From IMG/VR virus record IMGVR_UViG_2671180405_000011: DNA of 13,072 bases; one strand, given 5' to 3'. The stretch's first letter is position 1. Every line of letters starts with the position of its first letter. Shown here piece by piece: positions 1,413-13,072 of this stretch. Below the pieces are notes generated by a model. That model was not told where the DNA came from. It did no database searches and was given only the letters and a program-made list of their open reading frames with translations. The translations under genes and the position numbers were made by a program. The DNA is from a virus. Lineage: Duplodnaviria; Heunggongvirae; Uroviricota; Caudoviricetes.

Positions 1413-2441
1413 TTAAATACTCGCCACATTATACCAAGTGCCATTTATATACTTTTGCACTGGCCTGTAATGAACGCCTGCAATATTATCGGCAGAGTTT
1501 TTTCCGGTATCCTGTACGTTAATCCCCGTCAGTACATAGCCTGACGGGCACTGAAAATTCCATGTTTGCCAGTTGTTCACTCCATAATATTGCTGTGAAC
1601 CAAGTCGAACATCTTTCACATATCTGGAATCAAAATTGCCATAGTTGCCGGGAATAACTTGCGAGCCGCAAAGCCAGTTCCCGTTATTATCCATGTACGC
1701 CTGACCATCGGTGCCATTGGCTGTCCTTGAGTTATTAATCATGTAGATGCCAAATTGCTTATTTCCCAGACCGCCAATCATAAATTTGCGGTCGGCATGG
1801 TCCTGACGGAGCAAAGCCTGAGCACCATCAGTGGATACCGCATTACGTCCCAAAATAACATTCTGGTCACGCATATGAATCCACATGCCGGTACTACTGT
1901 TAATTGCAAAACGGTTTGCAAATATATCCCCTGTAACATCAAGACCATGCCCCATGCTTATCCGGCCAGTTCTGAGATTAAGCGTAAAGGGGCGTAGTGG
2001 CCCTATATTACCATTTTCCCCTTCATTCTCTCGTGTAGGGATGATATGCAGGCATTCTTCAGAACGACGAAAAATGGCACCAAAAGATGAATTAAATATC
2101 CTCAGTGCATTGACTGTCGATATTTTCACTTCACTGCTGAAAAGGGCTTCAACAAGAACAGACAAAGCATTCCATTTAAGATTCATCAGGTCTTTAGGCC
2201 GGGTGCCAATGATGCGGTGTCTCCATTTGAAATATTCATTGCCGTTGTTGCCTGTTTCAAACCACATGTAGGAATCGGTGTCTGCATCCGAATTATTTTT
2301 AAACCCAATCTTTGCCCAGTCAGTATTTCGAATCCAGGCAAGGATTGAGTCGTTTTCAAAAGTAAGTCCACCGGACAACGTATCGCCATTTTTTTGCACG
2401 GCGTTACCAGCCTTGTTTACCGTTTCCTGTAAACCGAGGTT
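1413..2441 (-). CDS. Alternative tail fibre C-terminal segment (Sv'-like), start-less cassette expressed only after inversion
   Basis: Minus-strand frame is open from 2441 with no proper ATG (listed start is GTG). It ends ...[12 protein letters not shown], paralogous to the plus-strand fibre C-terminus, and the frame opens just inside the crossover site. Confidence 0.75.
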
Positions 2442-2449
2442 TTAGATAA
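2424..2449. other. Serine-invertase crossover site (gix/hix/pix-like), right end of invertible segment
   Basis: ttcctgtaaaccgaggttttagataa: a 26-bp imperfect palindrome with 12-bp half sites around a central GA, closely matching recalled gix/hix sites. It lies about 55 bp upstream of the invertase start. Confidence 0.7.
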
Positions 2450-2503
2450 TGGCCGTTTCCGGCCTGCATGGCATGATTTGCGCTTTTGGACGGGAGATTC
2501 AGC

Positions 2504-2760
2504 GTGCTGATTGGCTATGTAAGGGTATCAACAAATGACCAGAATACAGACCTGCAACGAAACGCTCTTGTTTGTGCAGGATATGAACAAATATTTGAAG
2601 ATAAATTAAGCGGAACAAGGACAGGCCGACCTGGATTAAAACGTGCTTTAAAGCGCCTTCAAAAAGGTGACGCACTGGTTGTCTGAAAACTGGACTGACT
2701 GGGTCACTGTATGCGGCATCTTGTCGTGCTGGTGGTGGAAGCCTAGAAAAAGTATCGGGT
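2504..2760 (+). pseudogene. DNA invertase remnant (Gin/Pin/Hin/Cin family), inactivated
   Basis: GTG 2504 with SD gggaga, then MLIGYVRVSTNDQNTDLQRNAL... identical to the intact copy for about 80 bp. Scattered substitutions follow, TGG becomes TGA at 2684-2686 (W to stop), then further in-frame stops and weak residual similarity (LD*LGHCMRHLVVLV vs LDRLGRSMKHLISLV) to about 2760. Confidence 0.7.
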
Positions 2761-2844
2761 GTTGCTGAACCGTGTTGATACATCAACTGCACCTGATATT
2801 GAGTGGCCTACGAACCCTGTCAGGGAGTAATCATTGGGATTATG

Positions 2845-2877
2845 CCGCAGCACGTCTTAAGCAAGAACGTGCTGCGG
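2845..2877. other. Perfect 10-bp stem hairpin (ccgcagcacg / cgtgctgcgg, 13-nt loop), possible terminator
   Basis: Lies 8 nt beyond the methyltransferase stop (minus strand) and is followed on the plus strand by a T6 run at 2888-2893. There is no immediately adjacent U-tract on either strand, so terminator function is uncertain. Confidence 0.3.
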
Positions 2878-2884
2878 TTGGATG

Positions 2885-3532
2885 CTATTTTTTCCCTGAA
2901 GCGGAAAACATTACTACAGTACCTTGAACCCTGGTTTTAACATTCTCGAAATGCTCTGAGAGTATATGTGTTAAGCCTTCTTCGGAATCTTTTGTGTTTG
3001 AAAAGATGCCTTTCTGATTGTAAATGCGCATCAGTTTTTGACCGAAGCTATTGTGCACAACTCCATCGCCAAGAATTGTGGCTCCGTATAGAGTTCCATC
3101 GTCAGTTAAGGCCTGCGCCGCATTGCGTATTACACAGCTTTTTGTAGATATATTTCCAGGCAGGCAGTGAAGAAGGTAAAACATGGAAATGGAATCAAAT
3201 TGACCATGTAACGCCGCGGGATAAGGTTCAAAAACATCATGGCTAATTTTATGTTTAATTTTTGATTCCCCAGCCCTTGTAGATGCCGCGTTCAGGCTAG
3301 CTTCGTTCAAATCCATTAAAGATATCAGACTACTCTCAGGTACGTGAGTAAGGTAAAACCCAGTTCCAACACCAATATCCAGATGGTTGTTACCTAAATG
3401 TTCCAGAAAGTGTGGAAGAAGGTGTTCCTTTGTAGGACATCCCCATGCAAGCCGATTTGATACTCCCAAAACCCACCAGTCATAAAGCTTTAGGGTAAGT
3501 GGTGTGTAAATTTTAGCCCCATCATCTGTGTT
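2885..3532 (-). pseudogene. Class I SAM-dependent methyltransferase, 5'-truncated (small-molecule/RNA type, not an obvious DNA methyltransferase)
   Basis: Minus-strand frame is open from the repeat junction at 3532 to TAG at 2885-2887. It carries the Rossmann motif I LDIGVGTGFY and a post-I acidic/hydrophobic segment. There is no ATG with an RBS; the listed start is an internal TTG and the frame runs into the repeat, so the N-terminus is missing. The region is visibly AT-richer than its flanks. Confidence 0.6.
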
Positions 3533-3768
3533 TAGTGATAAAGCGAACTTATACCGGGGAAGAGCAGAGGCAACAAGCGGAAAATGAAAAGCAAAGCCTG
3601 CTACAGCTCGTCAGGGATAAAACCCAGCTATGGGACTCACAGCTACGGCTGGGCATTATTTCCGACGAGAATAAACAAAAATTAACCGAGTGGATGCTCT
3701 ATGCGCAGAAGGTCGAATCCACAGACACCTCCAGCCTGCCAGTAACGTTTCCCGAACAACCAGAATGA
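3533..3768 (+). pseudogene. Tail fibre assembly chaperone, C-terminal fragment (copy 2; lacks first ~100 codons)
   Basis: Identical to 619-855 of the intact chaperone gene. Identity begins abruptly at 3533; upstream sequence is methyltransferase, not chaperone. Confidence 0.7.
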
Positions 3769-3771
3769 AAC

Positions 3772-3799
3772 AAGGCCCGATATCGGGCCTTAATTTTTA
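3772..3799. terminator. Copy 2 of the palindromic hairpin with T-tract
   Basis: Same sequence as 859-886, offset 2913. Confidence 0.45.
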
Positions 3800-4324
3800 C
3801 TCAGGCTTTTGTGGCCATTCTGGCTTTGCCGTATCCACACGGCTGACCAGAACACTGTAGCGTTCCCATGCTTCCAGTCGTGTGCGTTCCTCGTCCGTCG
3901 CCATATTCAGCCTGACAGCGCGTTCCAGCGGCTGGATGACTGATTCAGCTTCGGAAAGCAATGCGGCCTTTTGTGATTCGGCCTGTTGTTGCTGTTCGTC
4001 AGCCGTATAAATCCGTTTAACCACAGCTCCGTCCTTAAACATCCACTTACCGGAATCATCAGCACGACGATTAGCTGTAATATCAGGAACCTCAACGACG
4101 CTATAACCTTCAGGGTTAAGCGTGGAGGCATCTTTGGTGATGGCGACAATAATATTATTTGCATCGTAAACAATCTTTATTGTGTCTGGCTGAAAGTTCT
4201 TCACTTCCTCATACCAGTTTTTTCCGTCCTCAGAGTAAAGCCAGATGACTCCGTGCTTCTTTGTTAACTCATACTGCTCCACTGTTTTAGCATTACCTGC
4301 TTTTATGTTCTTTAAGTGCATCAT
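3797..4324 (-). CDS. Alternative tail fibre assembly chaperone (U'-like), copy 2
   Basis: Translation identical to 884-1411. Confidence 0.75.
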
Positions 4325-4325
4325 A

Positions 4326-5354
4326 TTAAATACTCGCCACATTATACCAAGTGCCATTTATATACTTTTGCACTGGCCTGTAATGAACGCCTGCAATATT
4401 ATCGGCAGAGTTTTTTCCGGTATCCTGTACGTTAATCCCCGTCAGTACATAGCCTGACGGGCACTGAAAATTCCATGTTTGCCAGTTGTTCACTCCATAA
4501 TATTGCTGTGAACCAAGTCGAACATCTTTCACATATCTGGAATCAAAATTGCCATAGTTGCCGGGAATAACTTGCGAGCCGCAAAGCCAGTTCCCGTTAT
4601 TATCCATGTACGCCTGACCATCGGTGCCATTGGCTGTCCTTGAGTTATTAATCATGTAGATGCCAAATTGCTTATTTCCCAGACCGCCAATCATAAATTT
4701 GCGGTCGGCATGGTCCTGACGGAGCAAAGCCTGAGCACCATCAGTGGATACCGCATTACGTCCCAAAATAACATTCTGGTCACGCATATGAATCCACATG
4801 CCGGTACTACTGTTAATTGCAAAACGGTTTGCAAATATATCCCCTGTAACATCAAGACCATGCCCCATGCTTATCCGGCCAGTTCTGAGATTAAGCGTAA
4901 AGGGGCGTAGTGGCCCTATATTACCATTTTCCCCTTCATTCTCTCGTGTAGGGATGATATGCAGGCATTCTTCAGAACGACGAAAAATGGCACCAAAAGA
5001 TGAATTAAATATCCTCAGTGCATTGACTGTCGATATTTTCACTTCACTGCTGAAAAGGGCTTCAACAAGAACAGACAAAGCATTCCATTTAAGATTCATC
5101 AGGTCTTTAGGCCGGGTGCCAATGATGCGGTGTCTCCATTTGAAATATTCATTGCCGTTGTTGCCTGTTTCAAACCACATGTAGGAATCGGTGTCTGCAT
5201 CCGAATTATTTTTAAACCCAATCTTTGCCCAGTCAGTATTTCGAATCCAGGCAAGGATTGAGTCGTTTTCAAAAGTAAGTCCACCGGACAACGTATCGCC
5301 ATTTTTTTGCACGGCGTTACCAGCCTTGTTTACCGTTTCCTGTAAACCGAGGTT
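4326..5354 (-). CDS. Alternative tail fibre C-terminal segment (Sv'-like), copy 2
   Basis: Translation identical to 1413-2441. Confidence 0.7.
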
Positions 5355-5362
5355 TTAGATAA
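5337..5362. other. Serine-invertase crossover site (gix/hix/pix-like), copy 2
   Basis: ttcctgtaaaccgaggttttagataa, identical to 2424-2449 and in the same (direct) orientation. Confidence 0.7.
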
Positions 5363-5416
5363 TGGCCGTTTCCGGCCTGCATGGCATGATTTGCGCTTTT
5401 GGACGGGAGATTCAGC

Positions 5417-6004
5417 GTGCTGATTGGCTATGTAAGGGTATCAACAAATGACCAGAATACAGACCTGCAACGAAACGCTCTTGTTTGTGCAGGATGTGAA
5501 CAAATATTTGAAGATAAATTAAGCGGGACAAAGACAGACCGACCGGGATTAAAACGCGCTTTAAAGCGCCTTCAAAAAGGTGACACGCTGGTTGTCTGGA
5601 AACTGGATCGCCTCGGGCGAAGCATGAAACATCTGATTTCTCTCGTCGGGGAACTACGGGAGCGAGGAATTAATTTTCGCAGTCTGACCGACAGCATAGA
5701 TACATCTTCTCCAATGGGGCGTTTTTTCTTCCACGTGATGGGTGCCCTGGCTGAAATGGAACGTGAATTAATTGTTGAACGTACACTGGCCGGACTGGCG
5801 GCAGCACGCGCACGGGGGCGCACAGGCGGACGTCGACCGAAGCTGACAAAAGAACAGCATGAGCAAATAGCAAGGCTGATCAAAAACGGGCACGACAGAA
5901 AACAACTGGCAATAATTTACGGCATTGGTATATCGACGATTTATCGTTACCACCCCGCAGGAGAATCAATCGGAACAATAGAGAAGAGTCAGGAAACAAA
6001 ATAA
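5417..6004 (+). CDS. Site-specific DNA invertase, small serine recombinase of the Gin/Pin/Hin/Cin family (intact)
   Basis: GTG 5417 preceded by SD gggaga. N-terminus MLIGYVRVSTNDQNTDLQ carries the catalytic Ser; VVWKLDRLGRS, SPMGRFFFHVMGALAEMERELIVERT and a C-terminal helix-turn-helix (GGRRPKLT...) follow. It sits immediately downstream of a gix-like site, as Mu gin and e14 pin do. Confidence 0.9.
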   Translation: MLIGYVRVSTNDQNTDLQRNALVCAGCEQIFEDKLSGTKTDRPGLKRALKRLQKGDTLVVWKLDRLGRSMKHLISLVGELRERGINFRSLTDSIDTSSPMGRFFFHVMGALAEMERELIVERTLAGLAAARARGRTGGRRPKLTKEQHEQIARLIKNGHDRKQLAIIYGIGISTIYRYHPAGESIGTIEKSQETK

Positions 6005-6036
6005 CCGCTAATCTGACCATTAGCGGTTTTTGTGTT
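6003..6036. terminator. Bidirectional rho-independent terminator between convergent invertase and gpU genes
   Basis: Stem aaccgctaat / attagcggtt with loop ctgacc, followed by ttttgtgtt on the plus strand and by TTATTTT on the minus strand. Confidence 0.6.
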
Positions 6037-6039
6037 AAA

Positions 6040-6528
6040 TCAGAACAACCCTTTAACTGAACTGGCCGCGCTGTTAAGGGATGATGTTACCTTATCTTTG
6101 AAGCCGGACAGCATATCGCTGAACGATGAGGATTGCAGGCGCTCCCGCAAATCCTCATCACAGCGTTCAAGAGTCAGTGAAAATTCTATCTTTTTCGCCT
6201 TACCGTAGCGATCAAACTCGGAGCGGGTCGTATTCGTTTCGGTCAGGACATACATGCCGTAAATCTGCCCGACGCCATCAATCAGAGGCCAGGGTCGTCC
6301 TGTATACGCCTGCGTGGTCAGCAGCGACAGCGACACTTCGCCACCTGTAATTTCAGGATAAAGCACACCAGAAAGAACGATGCGCTCATCACCTGCACCG
6401 ATATACTGCCAGCTTGCCGAACGGTTAACGCGTTCATTTTTCACATGCCGCCAGCTTTTGTTTTGCTGTAACTGCTGATGCGGCAATGTACGCAGCTCAA
6501 AAACAAACATGCCGTAGATCATCATCAT
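6040..6528 (-). CDS. U: Phage tail protein gpU (P2 U family)
   Basis: Matches recalled P2 gpU: short N-terminal Met run, then GxFVF...SWRH...RVNRS...GVLYPEITGG...LIDG. The listed ORF starts at 6534, but SD GAGGAG spacing favours the third ATG at 6528. It follows T on the same strand. Confidence 0.85.
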   Translation of the reverse strand: MMMIYGMFVFELRTLPHQQLQQNKSWRHVKNERVNRSASWQYIGAGDERIVLSGVLYPEITGGEVSLSLLTTQAYTGRPWPLIDGVGQIYGMYVLTETNTTRSEFDRYGKAKKIEFSLTLERCDEDLRERLQSSSFSDMLSGFKDKVTSSLNSAASSVKGLF

Positions 6529-6540
6529 GGCCATGACTCC

Positions 6541-9357
6541 TCAATCTTTATCGTAAAAACTGCCACGCCCGGCACGGGCGCGCCGTTCCATTTCTGCCCT
6601 GACCATTTCACCGACCAGTTTCGCCAGTTCGCGGGGATTCTGCGTAACAACGTTATGCAGATGAACATGAATTTCACCACCAAATCCGGAGGCAACAGGC
6701 TCCCGGTTACGGGAAGTTACAGGAACTGATGCCACTGGAGAGCGTATGGCCTCCGCCACCGGGCGGGAGCTGGCCGCAACAACAGGGACCAGCGCCGGAG
6801 GCAGCGGAGCCGGGACCACGGGTGTGATATTAATTGCGGGGGCAGGCTTACTGACCTGCGCAATCTTCCGCTCCTGCCACTCCCCACGAACAGCAAGTGC
6901 GCGGGGCAGGTTCTTAAAGACAATATCGCCGGGGCCAATGCGTTTTTTCGTCTCATCAACCAGCTTACCTGTGTTATCAGCAATTTTGCTGAGTCTGCGT
7001 AGCGTCCCGGTATTGCTGTCTGTGAGCGGTTTGTTGTCTTTGGGTTTATCACCTCCGGTGCCATTGCCATTTTCCACAGGCTTCGGCGGATTGATTTTCG
7101 CCAGGTCCCCCTGAAGCAAGGCAACCTTGTCCTGAAGAATGGCCGCACGCTGTGCGTCTTCGATTTTCTTGCGCGCCCTTTCCGCTTCATCCGGAAGGAC
7201 GCCAAGTTTTTCAAGTATCCACGCCAGCGTATCCAGTAGCATTTTTGCAGGTGTCAGAACAAGTTGTAACGCACCGCCAAGAACGTTACCGAATATCTCG
7301 CCAGCACTGGCACATTTATCCAGCGTTTCCTTGCTGGACTCCATCGGTGACAGCAGCGATTTAAACCAGTTAAAGACCTGAATAATCCCATCGCGCACGA
7401 CATCAAAAACAGGGCCAAACCGTTCAAAGGTTTCGCGCAACGGGGTCAGCCTTTCCATAATCCCGCTGAACACCCCGGCAAAAAATGCCCTGATGGGATC
7501 CCAGTATTTCCAGATAAGAACGGCAGCTCCGGCAAGCGCAGCCACGATAAGACTAACCGGACTGAACAGCGCCCCGATAGCGCCACCAAGTAAAGAAACG
7601 GAACCCGTCACCATTCCCCATAATGCAGGCAGAACCCTGACAACATTCATTGATTCGGTCAGGAGAGAAAAACCGAGACGCAACGTAGCCAGCTTCCCGT
7701 GAAGCACCCCAATAACCAGAGACAACGAACCAACCGTTGCTGTTGTCGCCAGCAGTGCGCCTCCCGCTATCAGTAACTGGCGCGTCAGTGCCGGGTGGGC
7801 CTGCGCCAGCGCCGTCACCTTTGAGACAACCCGCGTGAGCCACTGCGTGACAGAACGCAGCGGACCGTCAACCAGATCACTGATGCGAATACGCAGACCT
7901 TCCCATGCACTGCCGAGTGATTTCAGGTTGCCATCAAGGTTATTGGCCATAACCTTTGCCGTGCGTTCTGCCTCACCGCGCGCGCCTTCAAGTTCTTTTC
8001 TCAGTTTGGCTAAGAAGCCGTCACCTGCCGCATCAACGAGGCCCATAAATGATGTGAAAGCCTCTTCTCCGGCAATGTCCTTAAAGAACGATACCCGGTC
8101 AACCTCCCCGTATTTGCGGGTGGCTTTATAGAGATCGGCCAGCACATTCTCCATCGGGCGCATTTTGCCTTTGGCGTCAGCAACTGACACCCCCAGCTCT
8201 TTCAGTGCTTCTGCCGCTGCCTTTGGCGGTGATGACAGATTGGCCAGGCTTTTACGCAACGCTGTACCTGCATCACTCCCCCTGATACCCATCTTCGCCA
8301 GCACGCCCGCCATCGCTGCGGCCTGCTCCAGCGATATTCCCAGCTTACCCGCCACCGGACCTGCATATTTCATGGTTTCGCCCAGTGCGCGAAGGTCAGT
8401 GTTGGTACGGGTAAACGCTGCGGTAAGTGTGTCACCGACCCGGTCCATCTGGTCAGCAGAGAGGCCGAACTGCGTCAGGATATTGGAACCAATATCCGCC
8501 GTCTCGCCGAGGTCCATACCGCCAGCCGTTGCCATGCTCAGCACGCCGGGAAGCGCAGCCTGAATGGCCTGCGGTGTGAAACCAGCCATTGCAAGAAATG
8601 CCTGTCCACTGGCGGCATCGCCTGCGGTGAACTGCGTTTCAGAGCCAAGTTTTAACGCCTGCTCACGCAGCGCCTTAAACTGCGGGCTGTTTTTATCGAT
8701 TCGCGTCAGTGCCTGAACACGGGACATCTCTTTCCCGAACCCGATAGCGGGCTGCAAAAAACGCCCGGCAGCATAGCCGCCCGCTGCCGCCGCACCTGTT
8801 GCCAGCGCACCACCTGTTTTCAGTTTTCCCGCTGTTTCCTGCGCGCGTGAATACCGCTCACGCGCCTGCGTTACACGCGCAAGCGCCCGCCGTTCGCGTT
8901 CAAGCTGGTTGTTGTATTGTCCGGTGCGTCTGATGGCCTGCTGGATGGTGTTATCGCTGCCTGTCAGGGAAATGCCGTGGCGTTTCAGCTCTCCGCCAAG
9001 TTCCCGCATTTTCTGAATTTCCCGTGTGCGCGATTCATTCAGGCGTTCAAGCCGGGTGCTTAACTGCTGCATCAGCTTTTGTTGTTTTTCGCTGAGCACT
9101 GTACCCGTGCGTTGTAACTGATTAAGGGCGTTAAGCTGGCGTCGTGCTTTCACGATGCCCGCATCCGCTTTACTGACAGCGTCACGGGCGCGCTCAAATG
9201 AACGCGCCTGACGCTCGAGATTTTTGATCGCCCCCTGCGTTCGCTGGATGGAGTCACCAAACTGCCCCATCAGGCGGCGGGCGTTTTCGGCAGGCCGGGT
9301 CAGCCTGTCAACGGCGCTGAAAGCGACCCGGATATCAAGAGTCTTCATTGTCTGCAT
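6541..9357 (-). CDS. T: Tail tape measure protein (P2 gpT-like)
   Basis: About 940-aa ORF rich in Ala/Gly/Leu with coiled-coil N-terminal third and hydrophobic central segments. It sits between E/E' and U as in P2. The start is ambiguous (GTG 9384, ATG 9357 or ATG 9348). Confidence 0.85.
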   Translation of the reverse strand: MQTMKTLDIRVAFSAVDRLTRPAENARRLMGQFGDSIQRTQGAIKNLERQARSFERARDAVSKADAGIVKARRQLNALNQLQRTGTVLSEKQQKLMQQLSTRLERLNESRTREIQKMRELGGELKRHGISLTGSDNTIQQAIRRTGQYNNQLERERRALARVTQARERYSRAQETAGKLKTGGALATGAAAAGGYAAGRFLQPAIGFGKEMSRVQALTRIDKNSPQFKALREQALKLGSETQFTAGDAASGQAFLAMAGFTPQAIQAALPGVLSMATAGGMDLGETADIGSNILTQFGLSADQMDRVGDTLTAAFTRTNTDLRALGETMKYAGPVAGKLGISLEQAAAMAGVLAKMGIRGSDAGTALRKSLANLSSPPKAAAEALKELGVSVADAKGKMRPMENVLADLYKATRKYGEVDRVSFFKDIAGEEAFTSFMGLVDAAGDGFLAKLRKELEGARGEAERTAKVMANNLDGNLKSLGSAWEGLRIRISDLVDGPLRSVTQWLTRVVSKVTALAQAHPALTRQLLIAGGALLATTATVGSLSLVIGVLHGKLATLRLGFSLLTESMNVVRVLPALWGMVTGSVSLLGGAIGALFSPVSLIVAALAGAAVLIWKYWDPIRAFFAGVFSGIMERLTPLRETFERFGPVFDVVRDGIIQVFNWFKSLLSPMESSKETLDKCASAGEIFGNVLGGALQLVLTPAKMLLDTLAWILEKLGVLPDEAERARKKIEDAQRAAILQDKVALLQGDLAKINPPKPVENGNGTGGDKPKDNKPLTDSNTGTLRRLSKIADNTGKLVDETKKRIGPGDIVFKNLPRALAVRGEWQERKIAQVSKPAPAINITPVVPAPLPPALVPVVAASSRPVAEAIRSPVASVPVTSRNREPVASGFGGEIHVHLHNVVTQNPRELAKLVGEMVRAEMERRARAGRGSFYDKD

Positions 9358-9864
9358 TCCCGCTGCGAAGTGCCGCCCGCTCACGCCAGCTAACCACTTC
9401 GCCGGGCGTCATCATGAAGATTTCGGCGGGCGACCAGTTAAAAATGGCGGCAATATCCGCCACAAAGTCTTCTATGTGCTCAAAGCACACAACCGTGATC
9501 AGGCTTCCGTCGCCTGTTCGTTCTTCTCGCCAGAGTCCGCACCGCTCAAAAAATTTACGGCAACCACACATAACTGAATAAAGTCACGGGATGCCATTTT
9601 TTTGATCGTCACTTCATCCAGTCGCGGTGATGTCACGCGTGACAGCAGCGTAAACATGGATTCCGCTTTCAAATTCAGCACATCAGACAGCGACAAATCT
9701 CGCAGAGATCCAGCCTGCTCAATAGCCCCGGTGATCTCCACATACGTGATTTTTTCGCCGCCTCGCTCAATTGGTTGGGTAAGTTTTACGCCACGCTCAC
9801 TGGTTTCTTTCACAGTGTCAGCAACGACCGTGTTTTCGGTATCGATGTTTTTCGTCTCTTTCAT
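9335..9864 (-). CDS. E+E': gpE+E' fusion chaperone made by programmed -1 ribosomal frameshift
   Basis: Slippery heptamer T TTT TTG on the minus strand (plus coordinates 9547-9553) in the E frame (AAT TTT TTG). The -1 frame then stays open for about 70 codons (ERCGLWREERTGDG...NADNEDS*) to 9335, overlapping the start of T, as with P2 E/E' and lambda G/GT. Confidence 0.7.
9499..9864 (-). CDS. E: Tail assembly chaperone gpE (zero-frame product)
   Basis: ATG 9864 with strong SD AAAGGAG at 7-nt spacing; 121 aa ending ...ASRDFIQLCVVAVNFLSGADSGEKNEQATEA, between tube and tape measure genes. Confidence 0.8.
   Translation of the reverse strand: MKETKNIDTENTVVADTVKETSERGVKLTQPIERGGEKITYVEITGAIEQAGSLRDLSLSDVLNLKAESMFTLLSRVTSPRLDEVTIKKMASRDFIQLCVVAVNFLSGADSGEKNEQATEA
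9547..9553 (-). promoter_or_regulatory. Programmed -1 frameshift slippery site (T TTT TTG)
   Basis: Plus strand reads caaaaaa; its reverse complement TTTTTTG is in X XXY YYZ register in the E frame. Confidence 0.65.
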
Positions 9865-9918
9865 CAGGAAACTCCTTTCAGTCAGAGGCGACGCACTGCG
9901 CCGCCTGCATATTACTTA

Positions 9919-10431
9919 TCAGCCAAGCCCGAGCGCGGAACGGATGCGATCGGGCACAATGTCCCTGCCGTCCTTCCGGTAAATGAAGTTCAGCAGGTCA
10001 ATCTCCCACAACGGGCGATCGTTAACACTCAGCTTGTAGTAGGTGTTTTTAATGGCGTAAGTGTGTGATGTGGCTTCGCCCTGTTTGGCTTCCCCCATAT
10101 CAATTTCCGTCACACGTCCGCGCATTTCGACTTCATACAGGTCGCTTTCAGCGTCGGTGTAGTATTCACCCGCAAAACGCAGCAGCGTACCGTCAATCGT
10201 GCCGCCATACTTAAGGAACAGCTCACGAACTGCGCCCCCCATGACAAAGCTCGCATCAAGCGCGGAGTCATCCAGGCCGAGATCAATACTTACCGCTCCC
10301 ATCATGCCACCACCCCGGTAGCTGTCGGTTTTGCGCGTCAGCTTAGGCAGAGTGACGGACGTCACCTTACCCACTTCGTTTTCACCATCCACAAACAGCG
10401 TAAAAAAGCGAAGATGTTTTGGTACAGCCAT
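9919..10431 (-). CDS. FII: Tail tube protein (P2 FII family)
   Basis: 170 aa with VTLPKLTRK...YRGGGM...IDLGLDD...GTIDG..LRFAG...VEMRGR, matching recalled P2 FII. Its start ATG overlaps the FI stop (TGATG), and SD GGGAGG lies upstream. Confidence 0.9.
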   Translation of the reverse strand: MAVPKHLRFFTLFVDGENEVGKVTSVTLPKLTRKTDSYRGGGMMGAVSIDLGLDDSALDASFVMGGAVRELFLKYGGTIDGTLLRFAGEYYTDAESDLYEVEMRGRVTEIDMGEAKQGEATSHTYAIKNTYYKLSVNDRPLWEIDLLNFIYRKDGRDIVPDRIRSALGLG

Positions 10432-11615
10432 CAGGCACCTCCCAGCACCGCAAATGCGGGACCAAAGAATTCATCAGTAAACGACTGGTAAAGCTCCATG
10501 TCTTCCAGCGGGGGAACAGGCGTATATTTGTAGCGAATACGCACGCGCCCCTGACGTAAATTCGTGGTGCCGTTATCCACCACGTCATACCAGCACGACG
10601 CCCCAATCAGTTTCCCGGCAGTAACCAGTGAATCCAGTTTTGCCCTGATGGCACCGATAACATCCTTCACGTTCGCAGGCGTCAGTGGACTGTCGATGGT
10701 TTCAAACTGCGCTTCCGCAATTGAATCAGCCAGCACCTGTGCGGTTCGGGTATACACCTCAAAGATGTAGGCGTTCGTTTCCGGTGTGCGGTTGCCCCAG
10801 AAGCGGAACCCGTTGCGACGAATAATGGTCGTGATTTCTTTGTTGTTGAGGCTGTTGGCATCACTGTCTTCGGCCTGCAACGACCAGAACACATGCCTGG
10901 ACATCCCCAGCACATTTTTAACCGGAACGTTGGACAGCGATTTGTGCCAGCCCTGCTCATGGTCAATGTACGCACGAAGGCCGCACGCATAGGCAGGCGC
11001 GGGGAACGTTTCGTTTTTGCCACTTTTCGGGTTGTAGGCGATGAAGTCCGGCCATAAGAGCATCACCTCACGTTCGTTGAATTTCTGGCGGTAGGTAATT
11101 GCCTCAGCCATCGTGTTACAGTCATGACATGAGGCATACACAAACGCGCGCAGTTTACCCGCAATCACGCACAGGGATTTTGTCACCGCCTCCGTGTCCA
11201 GCTCCGGCGCGGCCAGAATACGCGGACGGTATCCGATGCTTTCATCCTGCTCTGCAACAAGCAGCGCATACATCCCCGTATAGCTGCCGTCAGATTCAGA
11301 ACCACCGATAACCAGTTGATCCTGCGTTTTTCCGTCTTCTTCTTTGTGTTCAGCCACGCGAACGACGATCACCTTTGTGCTCACCTGGTCTGCGATGGCC
11401 TTAAGCGCACGATAAAGCGTCCCCGTTGTTCCGCATTTTCCCAGCACGTCATTGACGCGGGGCAGCAGTGTGGGCTTGTTCAGCGGGAACAGCTCCGCGT
11501 CCGCATCATCCGCCGTTGCCACGATACCGATAACGCTGGAATCAACATCGTTAATCGCTGTTACCAGGTCGGTATTTTCCGTAACACGGGCACCATGAAA
11601 ACGAGTTTCACTCAT
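10431..11615 (-). CDS. FI: Contractile tail sheath protein (P2 FI family)
   Basis: 394 aa with ...DADAE.FPLNKP...KLRAF.Y...WPDF...GLRA.IDHEQGWHK.LSNV...IRR.GFRFWGNRT...NYTRTAQV.AD...YDYTPVPPLE, matching recalled P2 FI. SD AAGGGG upstream of ATG 11615. Confidence 0.9.
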   Translation of the reverse strand: MSETRFHGARVTENTDLVTAINDVDSSVIGIVATADDADAELFPLNKPTLLPRVNDVLGKCGTTGTLYRALKAIADQVSTKVIVVRVAEHKEEDGKTQDQLVIGGSESDGSYTGMYALLVAEQDESIGYRPRILAAPELDTEAVTKSLCVIAGKLRAFVYASCHDCNTMAEAITYRQKFNEREVMLLWPDFIAYNPKSGKNETFPAPAYACGLRAYIDHEQGWHKSLSNVPVKNVLGMSRHVFWSLQAEDSDANSLNNKEITTIIRRNGFRFWGNRTPETNAYIFEVYTRTAQVLADSIAEAQFETIDSPLTPANVKDVIGAIRAKLDSLVTAGKLIGASCWYDVVDNGTTNLRQGRVRIRYKYTPVPPLEDMELYQSFTDEFFGPAFAVLGGA

Positions 11616-11772
11616 AGCTTCAACCCCTTGTATCCGTTAAATGATTCGGCAACAATCATCACCCACCACGCGCGTAATCTCACCCCTGCGCCATTCTCCC
11701 GCCACGGCGACAACAAAAAGCAGTAACCCCCTCCGCACGCACATGCGACCATGCCACACAGGGAGGGAGCAG

Positions 11773-12882
11773 ATGACCGACACCACCATGCAATTGCTCA
11801 GTCAGGGCACAGACCCCGTGAAAATGCCGGATTTTGATATTCTCGCGGAGGGTAAAACGCTGTCAGGCGTGGCAGAGCGCCTGATGAGCCTGTCACTGAC
11901 CGACAACCGGGGATTTGAGGCGGACCAGCTCACCATCACGCTGGATGATGCGGATGGTCAGTTGCAGCTACCGCCACGGGGCGCGCGCCTGACGGTTCTC
12001 ATTGGCTGGAAGGGAGAACCGCTGACAGAAAAAGGCACTTACATTGTTGATGAAATCGCTCACGAAGGACCGCCGGACAGGCTGACTGTTTCAGCCAGAA
12101 GCGCAGATTTTCGGGCTGAATTTAACGTTAAACGTGAGGTGTCCTGGCATGATGTGACCGTTGAGCGTGTGGTATCCGCCATCGCTCATCGGTATGGTCT
12201 GAAACCGCAAATCAGCGAAATGCTGATGGATATCGAAATCGACCACGCCGACCAGACCGAAGAAAGCGACATGTCCTTCCTTACGCGCATGGCGGAAATG
12301 CTGGGCGCAATCACCACGGTAAAAAGCGGTAATCTGTTATTCATCATGCCCGGTGGTGGCGTGAACGCACAGGGCCAGCCGTTGCCCTCGTTCGCCATCA
12401 CACGCAGCAGCGGCGATCGCCATCAGTTCCGCATTGCTGACCGCGAAGCGTATACGGGGGTACGCGCTTACTGGCTTGATCTTAATTACGGGAAAAAGAA
12501 AAAAGTCAGCGTGAAACGCCGCAAACCGTCAAAACCAAAAAAGGAGAAAAGCAGCAGCCGGGAAGGCGACTATATGGAAGGTGCGGAAGGCAACGTGTTT
12601 GTGTTACGCAAAACTTATCAGAACGAGCAGGCAGCAAGACGTGCAGCGGCGGCAAAGTGGCAGCAGCTACAACGCGGAGCCGCATCATTCTCCATCACAC
12701 TGGCGCATGGACGTGCAGAACTCTACCCCGAAATGCATGGCACGGTAACAGGATTTAAAAGCGAGATTGATAATCAGGACTGGATTATTGCAAAAGCCGA
12801 GCACACCATTGATAACAGCGGCTTTACCACGCAGCTTGAGCTTGAGGCAAAAATCCCGGAATGGATAGCAGAAACAGAGTGA
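11773..12882 (+). CDS. D: Phage tail protein gpD (P2 late control gene D family)
   Basis: ATG 11773 preceded by SD gggagggag. The 369-aa product has a Lys-rich low-complexity stretch and a C-terminus ...DNSGFTTQLELEAKI, consistent with recalled gpD. The longer listed ORF from 11641 has no RBS and a low-complexity N-terminus. Confidence 0.8.
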   Translation: MTDTTMQLLSQGTDPVKMPDFDILAEGKTLSGVAERLMSLSLTDNRGFEADQLTITLDDADGQLQLPPRGARLTVLIGWKGEPLTEKGTYIVDEIAHEGPPDRLTVSARSADFRAEFNVKREVSWHDVTVERVVSAIAHRYGLKPQISEMLMDIEIDHADQTEESDMSFLTRMAEMLGAITTVKSGNLLFIMPGGGVNAQGQPLPSFAITRSSGDRHQFRIADREAYTGVRAYWLDLNYGKKKKVSVKRRKPSKPKKEKSSSREGDYMEGAEGNVFVLRKTYQNEQAARRAAAAKWQQLQRGAASFSITLAHGRAELYPEMHGTVTGFKSEIDNQDWIIAKAEHTIDNSGFTTQLELEAKIPEWIAETE

Positions 12883-13072
12883 GCAACTTAAATGTATTAA
12901 CTCAGAACGGATCAACACACTCACAACATAGAGTCAATATAGCTGCTCGCTTTGTTCCAGCAAGGATGCCTATTTCTAAGGAAAAACAGAGCAGAAACAT
13001 ATGGTGTTTTCCTACCTGACATCAGGGGTGGTAGACTGGCCCCCTGAATCTCCAGACAACCAGTATCACTTA

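Follow-up and report, generated by a model that had tools for sequence, protein, structure and literature searches.

Reversed FI-U tail operon and separate gpD gene in a P88-like prophage: a lineage-typical gene order with a possible two-way late promoter

The P2 tail operon and its counterpart in the window

In phage P2, the genes V W J I H G Z FI FII E T U D ogr follow each other on one strand, in agreement with the original prediction. The F operon (FI FII E E' T U D), transcribed from the promoter pF, thus lies on the same strand as H and G, with D as its last gene overlapping U. The closest described relatives of the locus studied here are P88 and the Citrobacter phage PhiSM (Xuanwuvirus, Peduoviridae), both described as active temperate phages (PMC6456863). 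Between the invertase and D, these two phages share all genes, strands and spacers with the window, i.e. the whole analysed stretch of 13,072 nucleotides, at a DNA identity of 94.8-96.5%. Compared to them, the window alone carries a 2913-bp duplication and a methyltransferase gene upstream of the invertase. While P88 possesses an ogr homologue after D, the window shows the end of an IS2 element ~150 nt after this gene.

All seven products of the P2 F operon have homologues in the window (31-48% identity), and the presence of FI, FII, E, T, U and D, judged from the encoded proteins, indicates a contractile tail module of the Peduoviridae (P2-like) type. In contrast to P2, the single-strand order with D inside the F operon is absent: the minus strand carries U, T, E/E', FII and FI, flanked by a Gin-type invertase and gpD, which are encoded on the plus strand together with H and G (Table 1). 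The minus-strand position of this block, postulated before from the sequence, was confirmed by the Pfam identities of its products.

Table 1. Features of the window around the reversed tail gene block.
Feature	Position	Strand	Remarks
gix recombination site of the invertible tail-fibre segment	5337-5362	+	TTCCTGTAAACCGAGGTTTTAGATAA; second identical copy at 2424-2449
Gin/Hin-type serine DNA invertase	5417-6004	+	195 aa; Pfam Resolvase 1.5e-50, HTH_7 1.8e-13
Two-way intrinsic terminator	6003-6028	both	10-bp stem then T-run on each strand; inverted repeat I16
gpU tail protein	6040-6534	-	Pfam Phage_P2_GpU 7.7e-39; protein identity 99% to P88, 47% to P2
gpT tape measure	6541-9348	-	Pfam PhageMin_Tail 1.4e-57; P88 gp45
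gpE	9499-9864	-	E' frame 9335-9571; E+E' 9335-9864, predicted -1 frameshift product
gpFII tail tube	9919-10431	-	Pfam Phage_tube 1.9e-46
gpFI tail sheath	10431-11615	-	Pfam Phage_sheath_1, Gp18_domIII_N, Phage_sheath_1C
Predicted -10 of pF (FI-FII-E-T-U)	11655-11660	-	GATGAT; predicted start near 11648
Putative Ogr/Delta-type late activator site	11695-11712	both	TCT-N12-ACA (consensus TGT-N12-ACA); spacer centre
Predicted extended -10 of a separate D promoter	11744-11752	+	TG-c-GACCAT; predicted start near 11759
D ribosome-binding site	11761-11769	+	
gpD baseplate hub ('late control D')	11773-12882	+	369 aa; Pfam Phage_GPD 5.1e-17

Several of the start positions were chosen with the help of P88. 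The invertase reading frame extends back to a TTG at 5399, while the start at 5417 agrees with P88 gp43; similarly, the gpT frame is open up to 9384 and the start at 9348 was taken from the P88 annotation. The start of D is preceded by a GGGAGGGAG ribosome-binding site, agrees with the P88 annotation and aligns with the D starts of the relatives. An in-frame ATG at 11641 was rejected as a mere extension of the reading frame. The resulting gpD shows an identity of 96% to P88 and of 48% to P2 gpD over 95% of its length. For gpE, the Pfam match Phage_P2_GpE falls into the overlapping E' frame, and the slippery sequence TTTTTTG at 9553-9547 (minus strand) is the heptamer of the annotated E/E' frameshift site of P2. 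The predicted -1 frameshift at this heptamer is a further characteristic of a P2-like tail module.

At the left end of the block, it was proposed that a single bidirectional terminator serves the invertase and gpU from either side, and the hairpin at 6003-6028 indeed scores as a terminator for both strands. The FI-U operon would end at this terminator and share it with any cargo located between G and U, which in this window comprises the invertible fibre cassette and the Gin-type invertase. At the right end, FI and gpD diverge as predicted from a 157-bp intergenic region (11616-11772), and the corresponding spacer of P88 likewise comprises 157 bp.

Gene order among relatives and origin of the reversed block

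A stretch of 7.6 kb was found to be collinear at 94-96.5% identity with P88, with 12 further phage records and with 106 complete genomes of E. coli. The annotation of P88, an inducible phage of the genus Xuanwuvirus, shows identical strands. Its identity of 96.5% refers to these collinear 7.6 kb, since the window holds the tail end of the genome only; the ICTV genus rule is an identity of about 70% at the nucleotide level over the whole genome. The flipped order was observed in 19 of 19 informative loci from ~15 genera of Enterobacterales, and also in SEN5 (Senquatrovirus) and Kp4871-3 (Reginaelenavirus). Furthermore, all 74 IMG/VR contigs with a gpD at least 60% identical to that of the window showed this order, whereas the six contigs with a gpD identity of at most 54% all showed the P2 order. 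The latter was also found in P2, Cartapus, ST11-OXA48phi15.3, phiCTX and RSA1; in total, the P2-order sample is small, comprising 11 genomes (10 in the trees) chosen by similarity to the gpD of the window. Among the ~100 relatives with a gpD identity of at least 60%, the P2 orientation was not found.

The original prediction had considered the order either native to a distinct P2-related lineage or due to an inversion in this DNA. Since complete related phages have exactly this order, an outcome which the prediction itself had named as its refutation, the arrangement is lineage-typical and no novelty. The synteny comparison supports the native arrangement, which is fixed in P88/Xuanwuvirus, Senquatrovirus, Reginaelenavirus and ~100 further prophages and viral contigs. 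The gene order as such is already known from the annotated genomes of P88 and its relatives, SEN5 and the Klebsiella Reginaelenavirus phages, although a literature search for an explicit description of the FI-U inversion in P88 or Xuanwuvirus found none. Because these three genera are assigned to the Peduoviridae by the ICTV, the P2 order, a trait of P2 and of many genera, is not family-defining. Altogether, we consider it very likely that the window represents the tail end of a P88-like prophage (Xuanwuvirus, Peduoviridae), and that the minus-strand U-T-E/E'-FII-FI is the normal inherited order of a broad enterobacterial P2-related branch.

An intact invertase adjoining the block and two true gix sites within the window could suggest that the FI-U inversion is recent or still switching and catalysed by this enzyme. 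Over the initial ~470-490 nt of the query, i.e. the upstream gix region and the 5' two-thirds of the invertase gene, the DNA is 92-96% identical to the gin genes of Mu, D108 and SfMu. The gix site at 5337-5362 differs in one position from the gixL sequence of Mu, with 0 chance matches expected. However, this site lies outside the FI-U block, and true gix sites occur in the window only there and at 2424-2449. The block ends (5960-6080 and 11580-11800) were searched with the complete 26-mer (3 mismatches allowed), by an exhaustive count of mismatches and with the AAACCnnGGTTT core. The best matches had at least 12 mismatches out of 26, which corresponds to background, and inverted repeats joining the two ends were not found. 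The earlier statement that neither endpoint carries a gix-like site, and that catalysis by the adjacent invertase is unsupported, thus holds. In addition, every relative examined has the identical order, many of them without an invertase between G and U, while Cartapus combines a 77%-identical invertase of the same kind with the P2 order. A recent or switching inversion is accordingly regarded as extremely improbable, and the invertase would flip the fibre cassette only.

Two features upstream of the block were not mentioned in the original prediction. One is an inverted G'/H' fibre cassette. The other is an exact duplication with an offset of 2913 bp (620-2582 identical to 3533-5495), which carries an illegitimate junction at 3532/3533. 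A search for this junction in complete E. coli genomes, IMG/VR and JGI metagenomes gave 0 matches.

Such an odd upstream structure, with a junction found nowhere else, could point to a misassembly or a chimeric join which made the inversion merely apparent. Nonetheless, independent complete phage and bacterial genomes match the whole sequence from the invertase through D in one unbroken alignment. This refutes a misassembly for the FI-U block, and the probability of such an artefact is considered negligible.

A further explanation would be that recombination with another contractile-tail phage brought in a foreign FI-U module in the reversed direction. This would agree with the mosaic nature of P2-like phages and with reported rearrangements of the tail operon, e.g. 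in Smp131 (PMC3931495). In neighbour-joining trees of D, FI and U, which are rough as they were built on segments derived from tblastn, the inverted type nevertheless forms one clade each, with 0 members of the P2 order inside. Moreover, the proteins of the window show similar distances to those of P2 (identity of FI 45%, U 47% and D 48%), and the distance from the pF activator site to FI is the same as in phages with the P2 order. A foreign origin of the module is therefore very unlikely, with a small probability left for an ancient exchange between closely related phages. The monophyly of D, FI and U fits one old inversion in the ancestry of the branch.

Homology to the P2-order relatives reaches to within ~7 residues of the N-terminus of D and spans 98% of U. 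The flipped order most likely results from a single ancient event which inverted the F operon except for D, with one breakpoint presumably upstream of the pF activator site and the other within a few codons of the overlapping junction of the U stop and the D start.

The spacer between FI and D

The putative activator site in the centre of the spacer has TCT instead of TGT as its left half-site (consensus TGT-N12-ACA; PMC3931495) and was recognised only by comparison with the relatives. Among 88 non-identical spacers from relatives, 83 contain the pattern T[GC]T-N12-ACA, compared to 5% in shuffled sequences, with conserved half-sites and a variable N12. Its distance to the ATG of FI amounts to 78-88 nt in the relatives (median 84), while the phages with the P2 order showed 83 nt (P2), 85.5 nt (Cartapus) and 78.5 nt (ST11-OXA48phi15.3). 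The FI/D spacer of P88 contains the site of the window too, and GTTCT-N12-ACAACAAAAGC recurs in the P-O spacer of the same phage. An exact TGT-N12-ACA occurs in the window only as two chance matches inside the duplicated fibre gene.

On both sides of this site, conserved candidate promoter elements were observed. Towards FI, a GATnAT hexamer ending 49 nt from the site centre is kept in 33 representatives (<85% identical), which suggests a late pF promoter for FI-U at 11655-11660. Towards D, counted from the site centre, the relatives show a conserved TG at positions +40/+41 and a conserved hexamer with its last base at +48, which points to a D promoter and to the use of one activator site from both sides. 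For comparison, the pF start of P2 lies 57 nt from its site centre, and a single annotated site is flanked by the starts of pP at -56 and of pO at +55.

Based on these distances, it is assumed that FI-U would still be transcribed from pF, whereas D, having lost its coupling to U, would have acquired a ribosome-binding site and a late promoter of its own. This promoter may use the dyad-symmetric Ogr-type site from the opposite side, as the divergent P2 promoters pP and pO do. The 157-bp spacer would then act as a small bidirectional late promoter, with a single Ogr-type site switching on the FI-U operon on one side and the isolated D gene on the other. The symmetry of the P2 activator site would explain why the ancestral inversion was tolerated, and the dosage and timing of gpD would have been freed from the rest of the tail operon in the whole branch. 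We lean towards this interpretation, with some reservation. A literature search found no paper describing a two-way FI/D late promoter with a shared Ogr-type site.

Alternatively, with the order being lineage-typical as well, D could be driven by an independent promoter without activator or by read-through instead of the shared site. This is conceivable in view of the degenerate left half-site TCT and the very short leader of D, which would comprise only ~14 nt. On the other hand, the promoter scan found no sigma-70-like promoter in 11616-11772, the TG-n-hexamer on the D side is kept at the mirror-image distance, and read-through to D would have to cross the 5.6-kb FI-U block in antisense direction and the two-way terminator. 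An expression of D independent of the shared site is thus possible, but appears the less probable of the two.

A candidate for the activator protein is encoded next to D in the relatives, where an Ogr homologue was found downstream of this gene, including P88 and an O111 prophage. In P88, it was detected by tblastn in the unannotated stretch after D, while a domain scan of several small P88 and SEN5 reading frames gave no match for Ogr_Delta. Within the window no ogr homologue is present, and the IS2 end interrupts the sequence after D. The annotation 'ogr' in Shae_phiSM was rejected, since the label is shifted onto gpD.

Comparison with known systems

As a discovery, the flipped order carries little weight, since it is already contained in annotated reference genomes. 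It nonetheless provides a clear-cut marker of synteny, by which one enterobacterial branch of the Peduoviridae can be recognised, and tracks the gpD identity, with all flipped members at 60% or above and all others at 54% or below in this sample. For annotators, D should be expected as a separate transcription unit in this branch. If correct, the predicted common-site promoter would illustrate on a small scale that an operon with a symmetric activator site can be split by an inversion and still keep its regulation.

The fibre cassette, gix site and invertase of the window share an identity of 88-96% with their counterparts in SfMu, Mu, D108, P1 and P7. In the G segment of Mu and the C segment of P1 (Gin/Cin/Hin/Pin systems), only the fibre and chaperone cassette flips, and the ends of the FI-U block lack such sites here. 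Regarding P2, the F operon shares with the window the E/E' slippery site and an activator site ~83 nt upstream of FI. The FI/D spacer as a whole resembles the region of P2 pP and pO, since both comprise divergent late genes, a spacer of 150-175 bp, one central dyad of the TGT-N12-ACA type and transcription starts ~55 nt to either side of the site, which for the window are predicted ones. While the P2 site was mapped experimentally and serves the packaging operon P,Q (terminase, portal) as well as the capsid-and-lysis operon O, the role of the window's site for FI-U and D is a predicted one.

Occurrence and origin of the inverted tail gene block

The gene content of the window was mapped by ORF listing combined with Pfam scans, and the gene order and strands described in the original prediction were correct on every point that could be checked, with FI-FII-E/E'-T-U on the minus strand between the invertase and gpD. 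The hairpin between the invertase and gpU scores as a terminator on both strands, in agreement with the proposed bidirectional terminator, and the slippery heptamer in E/E' is the same as the annotated frameshift site of P2. The P2 order stated in the original prediction also agrees with the P2 record, where V W J I H G Z FI FII E E' T U D ogr lie on a single strand.

Features of the window with coordinates and strand
Feature	Position	Strand
Tail fibre gene, C-terminal end	21-248	+
Fibre chaperone	322-855	+
Chaperone and fibre-tip pair, inverted	884-1444, 1413-2399	-
gix site	2424-2449	
Invertase fragment, 66 aa	2486-2686	+
Class I SAM-dependent methyltransferase	2885-3469	-
Second copy: half of chaperone, inverted pair, gix	3533-5362	
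gix site of second copy	5337-5362	
Gin-type invertase, full	5417-6004	+
Terminator hairpin	6003-6028	both
gpU	6040-6534	-
gpT	6541-9348	-
E/E'	9335-9864	-
E/E' slippery heptamer TTTTTTG	9553-9547	
FII	9919-10431	-
FI	10431-11615	-
gpD	11773-12882	+

From 5300 to 13072 the window is collinear as one piece with Escherichia phage P88, as well as with 12 further phage records, at 94-96.5% identity, and the RefSeq annotation of P88 has U, T, E', E, FII and FI on the minus strand, flanked by the invertase and D on the plus strand. At least 80% of the window was found together at one place in each of 106 complete E. coli genomes, with the same strands in the examples strain B2 and O111 RM9322. Between a local inversion and the native arrangement of a distinct lineage, both of which had been considered, the latter was the right reading. 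The arrangement of FI-U and D recurs in related complete phages, namely P88, Salmonella phage SEN5 (Senquatrovirus) and Klebsiella phage Kp4871-3 (Reginaelenavirus), as well as in many prophages and contigs, and is therefore lineage-typical, the outcome that the original prediction had named as its refutation. Since it is already present in annotated reference genomes, the arrangement is not new, and the block in this window is not special. It is also functional, since P88 and its relative, Citrobacter phage PhiSM, are described as active temperate phages (PMC6456863).

A gpD-based scan with one genome per species yielded 22 loci, 19 of which contain both genes, and FI-U was opposite to D in all 19 (gpD 64-98% identical to that of the window). 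The hosts belong to Salmonella, Trabulsiella, Edwardsiella, Kluyvera, Erwinia, Enterobacter, Mixta, Pantoea, Kosakonia, Citrobacter, Izhakiella, Brenneria, Klebsiella and Rouxiella, together with a record labelled Vagococcus. Among the IMG/VR contigs, those with a gpD at least 60% identical showed the inverted order (74/74) and those with a gpD at most 54% identical the P2 order (6/6), which was also found in P2, Cartapus (Elveevirus), ST11-OXA48phi15.3 (Kapieceevirus), phiCTX and RSA1. In neighbour-joining trees rooted with phiCTX and RSA1, the inverted type formed a single clade for each protein, with zero P2-order members within it (D n=97, FI n=94, U n=78 distinct sequences). The simplest reading is one old inversion, which would have been fixed in the ancestor of this enterobacterial branch.

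Two records with Firmicutes labels, Vagococcus sp. and Planococcaceae (comparison records L006 and L023), also contain near-identical P88-like prophage sequence, most likely due to contamination or mislabelled contigs.

In P2-order phages (P2, Cartapus) the U stop overlaps the D start. The homology of the window D to Cartapus starts at residue 7, with a coverage of 98% for U, which would place the first breakpoint within a few codons of the U/D junction. The distance from the activator site of pF, the P2 late promoter of the FI operon, to FI is kept: the median is 84 nt for phages with the inverted order (range 78-88), compared to values of 83 nt for P2, 85.5 nt for Cartapus and 78.5 nt for ST11-OXA48phi15.3. 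This suggests a second breakpoint upstream of the activator site.

The invertase as the cause of the block orientation was rejected. As noted before, there is no gix-like site at the block ends, where the best match has 12/26 mismatches and equals background, and a search for an inverted repeat linking the two ends found none. Furthermore, most relatives with the inverted order carry no invertase between G and U, among them SEN5 and O111 RM9322, where a serine O-acetyltransferase gene occupies the gap instead, while Cartapus has a 77%-identical invertase, yet shows the P2 order. Altogether, the invertase plays no role in the orientation of FI-U, and the G-U gap is a cargo slot.

Duplication upstream of the block

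The only true gix sites in the window are the two listed in the table. They are identical, in direct orientation, 2.9 kb apart and adjoin one intact invertase; an inverted partner is expected inside the fibre gene, upstream of the window.

An exact direct repeat of 1963 nt (620-2582 = 3533-5495, offset 2913) continues with few mismatches to 2671/5584. Half of the chaperone gene is thereby present twice, as are the inverted chaperone/fibre-tip pair, the gix site and the 5' end of the invertase. No such repeat occurs in the best P88-like E. coli prophages, whose matches span 9.9 kb compared to 12.8 kb in the window. The exact repeat encloses 2429-3533 (truncated 66-aa invertase, methyltransferase and flanks), which matches a decayed lambdoid prophage end adjoining trp in E. 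coli strain 4/1-1 at 99.3% identity and is present for the most part in about 410 E. coli genomes with identities of up to 99.7%. At 3532/3533 the methyltransferase 5' end, from which the initial 20 nt with the start codon are missing, is fused to the middle of the chaperone gene. The junction is illegitimate, with a microhomology of 1 nt. It was absent from 5,426 complete E. coli genomes and from the phage collection, as well as from IMG/VR and the JGI metagenomes, and could represent a strain-specific duplication, two adjacent prophage ends or an assembly error.

Sequence downstream of gpD and annotation of related records

In relatives, an Ogr homologue is encoded 3' of D and in the same direction. 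The window shows no ogr because the terminal ~40 nt of IS2 (IS3 family; 13034-13072) begin ~150 nt past gpD. The insertion-site sequence matches the P88-like prophages in 58 E. coli genomes, including O111 RM9322, at 100% identity, and the uninterrupted prophages carry a PIN-domain gene followed by ogr at this point. In P88 (NC_026014) an unannotated Ogr homologue (MFRCPLCGASARIRTSR...) was observed at 15595-15753, 43 nt downstream of gpD, with 41.5% identity to P2 Ogr over 53 aligned residues.

In Citrobacter phage Shae_phiSM (OR565851, comparison record L031) the product labels at 8105-10556 are displaced by one gene, so that the sheath is labelled 'late control gene D protein' and gpD 'ogr/Delta-like zinc finger family protein'. 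For E. coli prophages of this lineage, the gpD annotated by RefSeq (PGAP) is a 5'-shortened protein of ~265 aa labelled 'VgrG/Pvc8 family' (12117-12911 in comparison record L003, 13213-14013 in L114), while P2 gpD homology and the conserved ribosome-binding site support the 369-aa form.

Predicted late promoters between FI and D

The length of the FI/D spacer is conserved (median 157 bp), and 83 of 88 non-identical spacers carry T[GC]T-N12-ACA at the centre, compared to a match in 5% of shuffled ones. Half-sites and spacing are kept in the FI/D spacers of relatives, while N12 is free to vary. The Ogr-dependent late promoters of P2 have the consensus TGT-N12-ACA (PMC3931495); the window copy at 11695-11712 reads TCT-N12-ACA instead of TGT and is followed by ACAACAAAAAGC. 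The P-O (terminase/scaffold) spacer of P88 also has GTTCT-N12-ACAACAAAAGC.

A set of 33 representatives with pairwise identities below 85% was aligned by anchoring on the activator site. At 11655-11660 of the window the FI strand showed a conserved GATnAT, which ends 49 nt away from the site centre, and at 11744-11752 the D strand showed a conserved TG-n-hexamer, which ends 48 nt away from it. A consensus scan of the FI/D spacer gave no sigma-70-like promoter. Based on the positions of these -10-like elements, transcript starts are predicted near 11648 (-) for the FI side and 11759 (+) for the D side. Judged from these sequence features, FI-U and D are probably expressed from divergent late promoters around one central activator site. 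No description of the inversion or of a shared FI/D promoter was found in the papers searched, and the latter would be a modest, testable addition rather than a discovery. The predicted design is the same as that of pP/pO in P2, where a single annotated activator site (3057-3087) lies between starts at 3016 (-) and 3127 (+).
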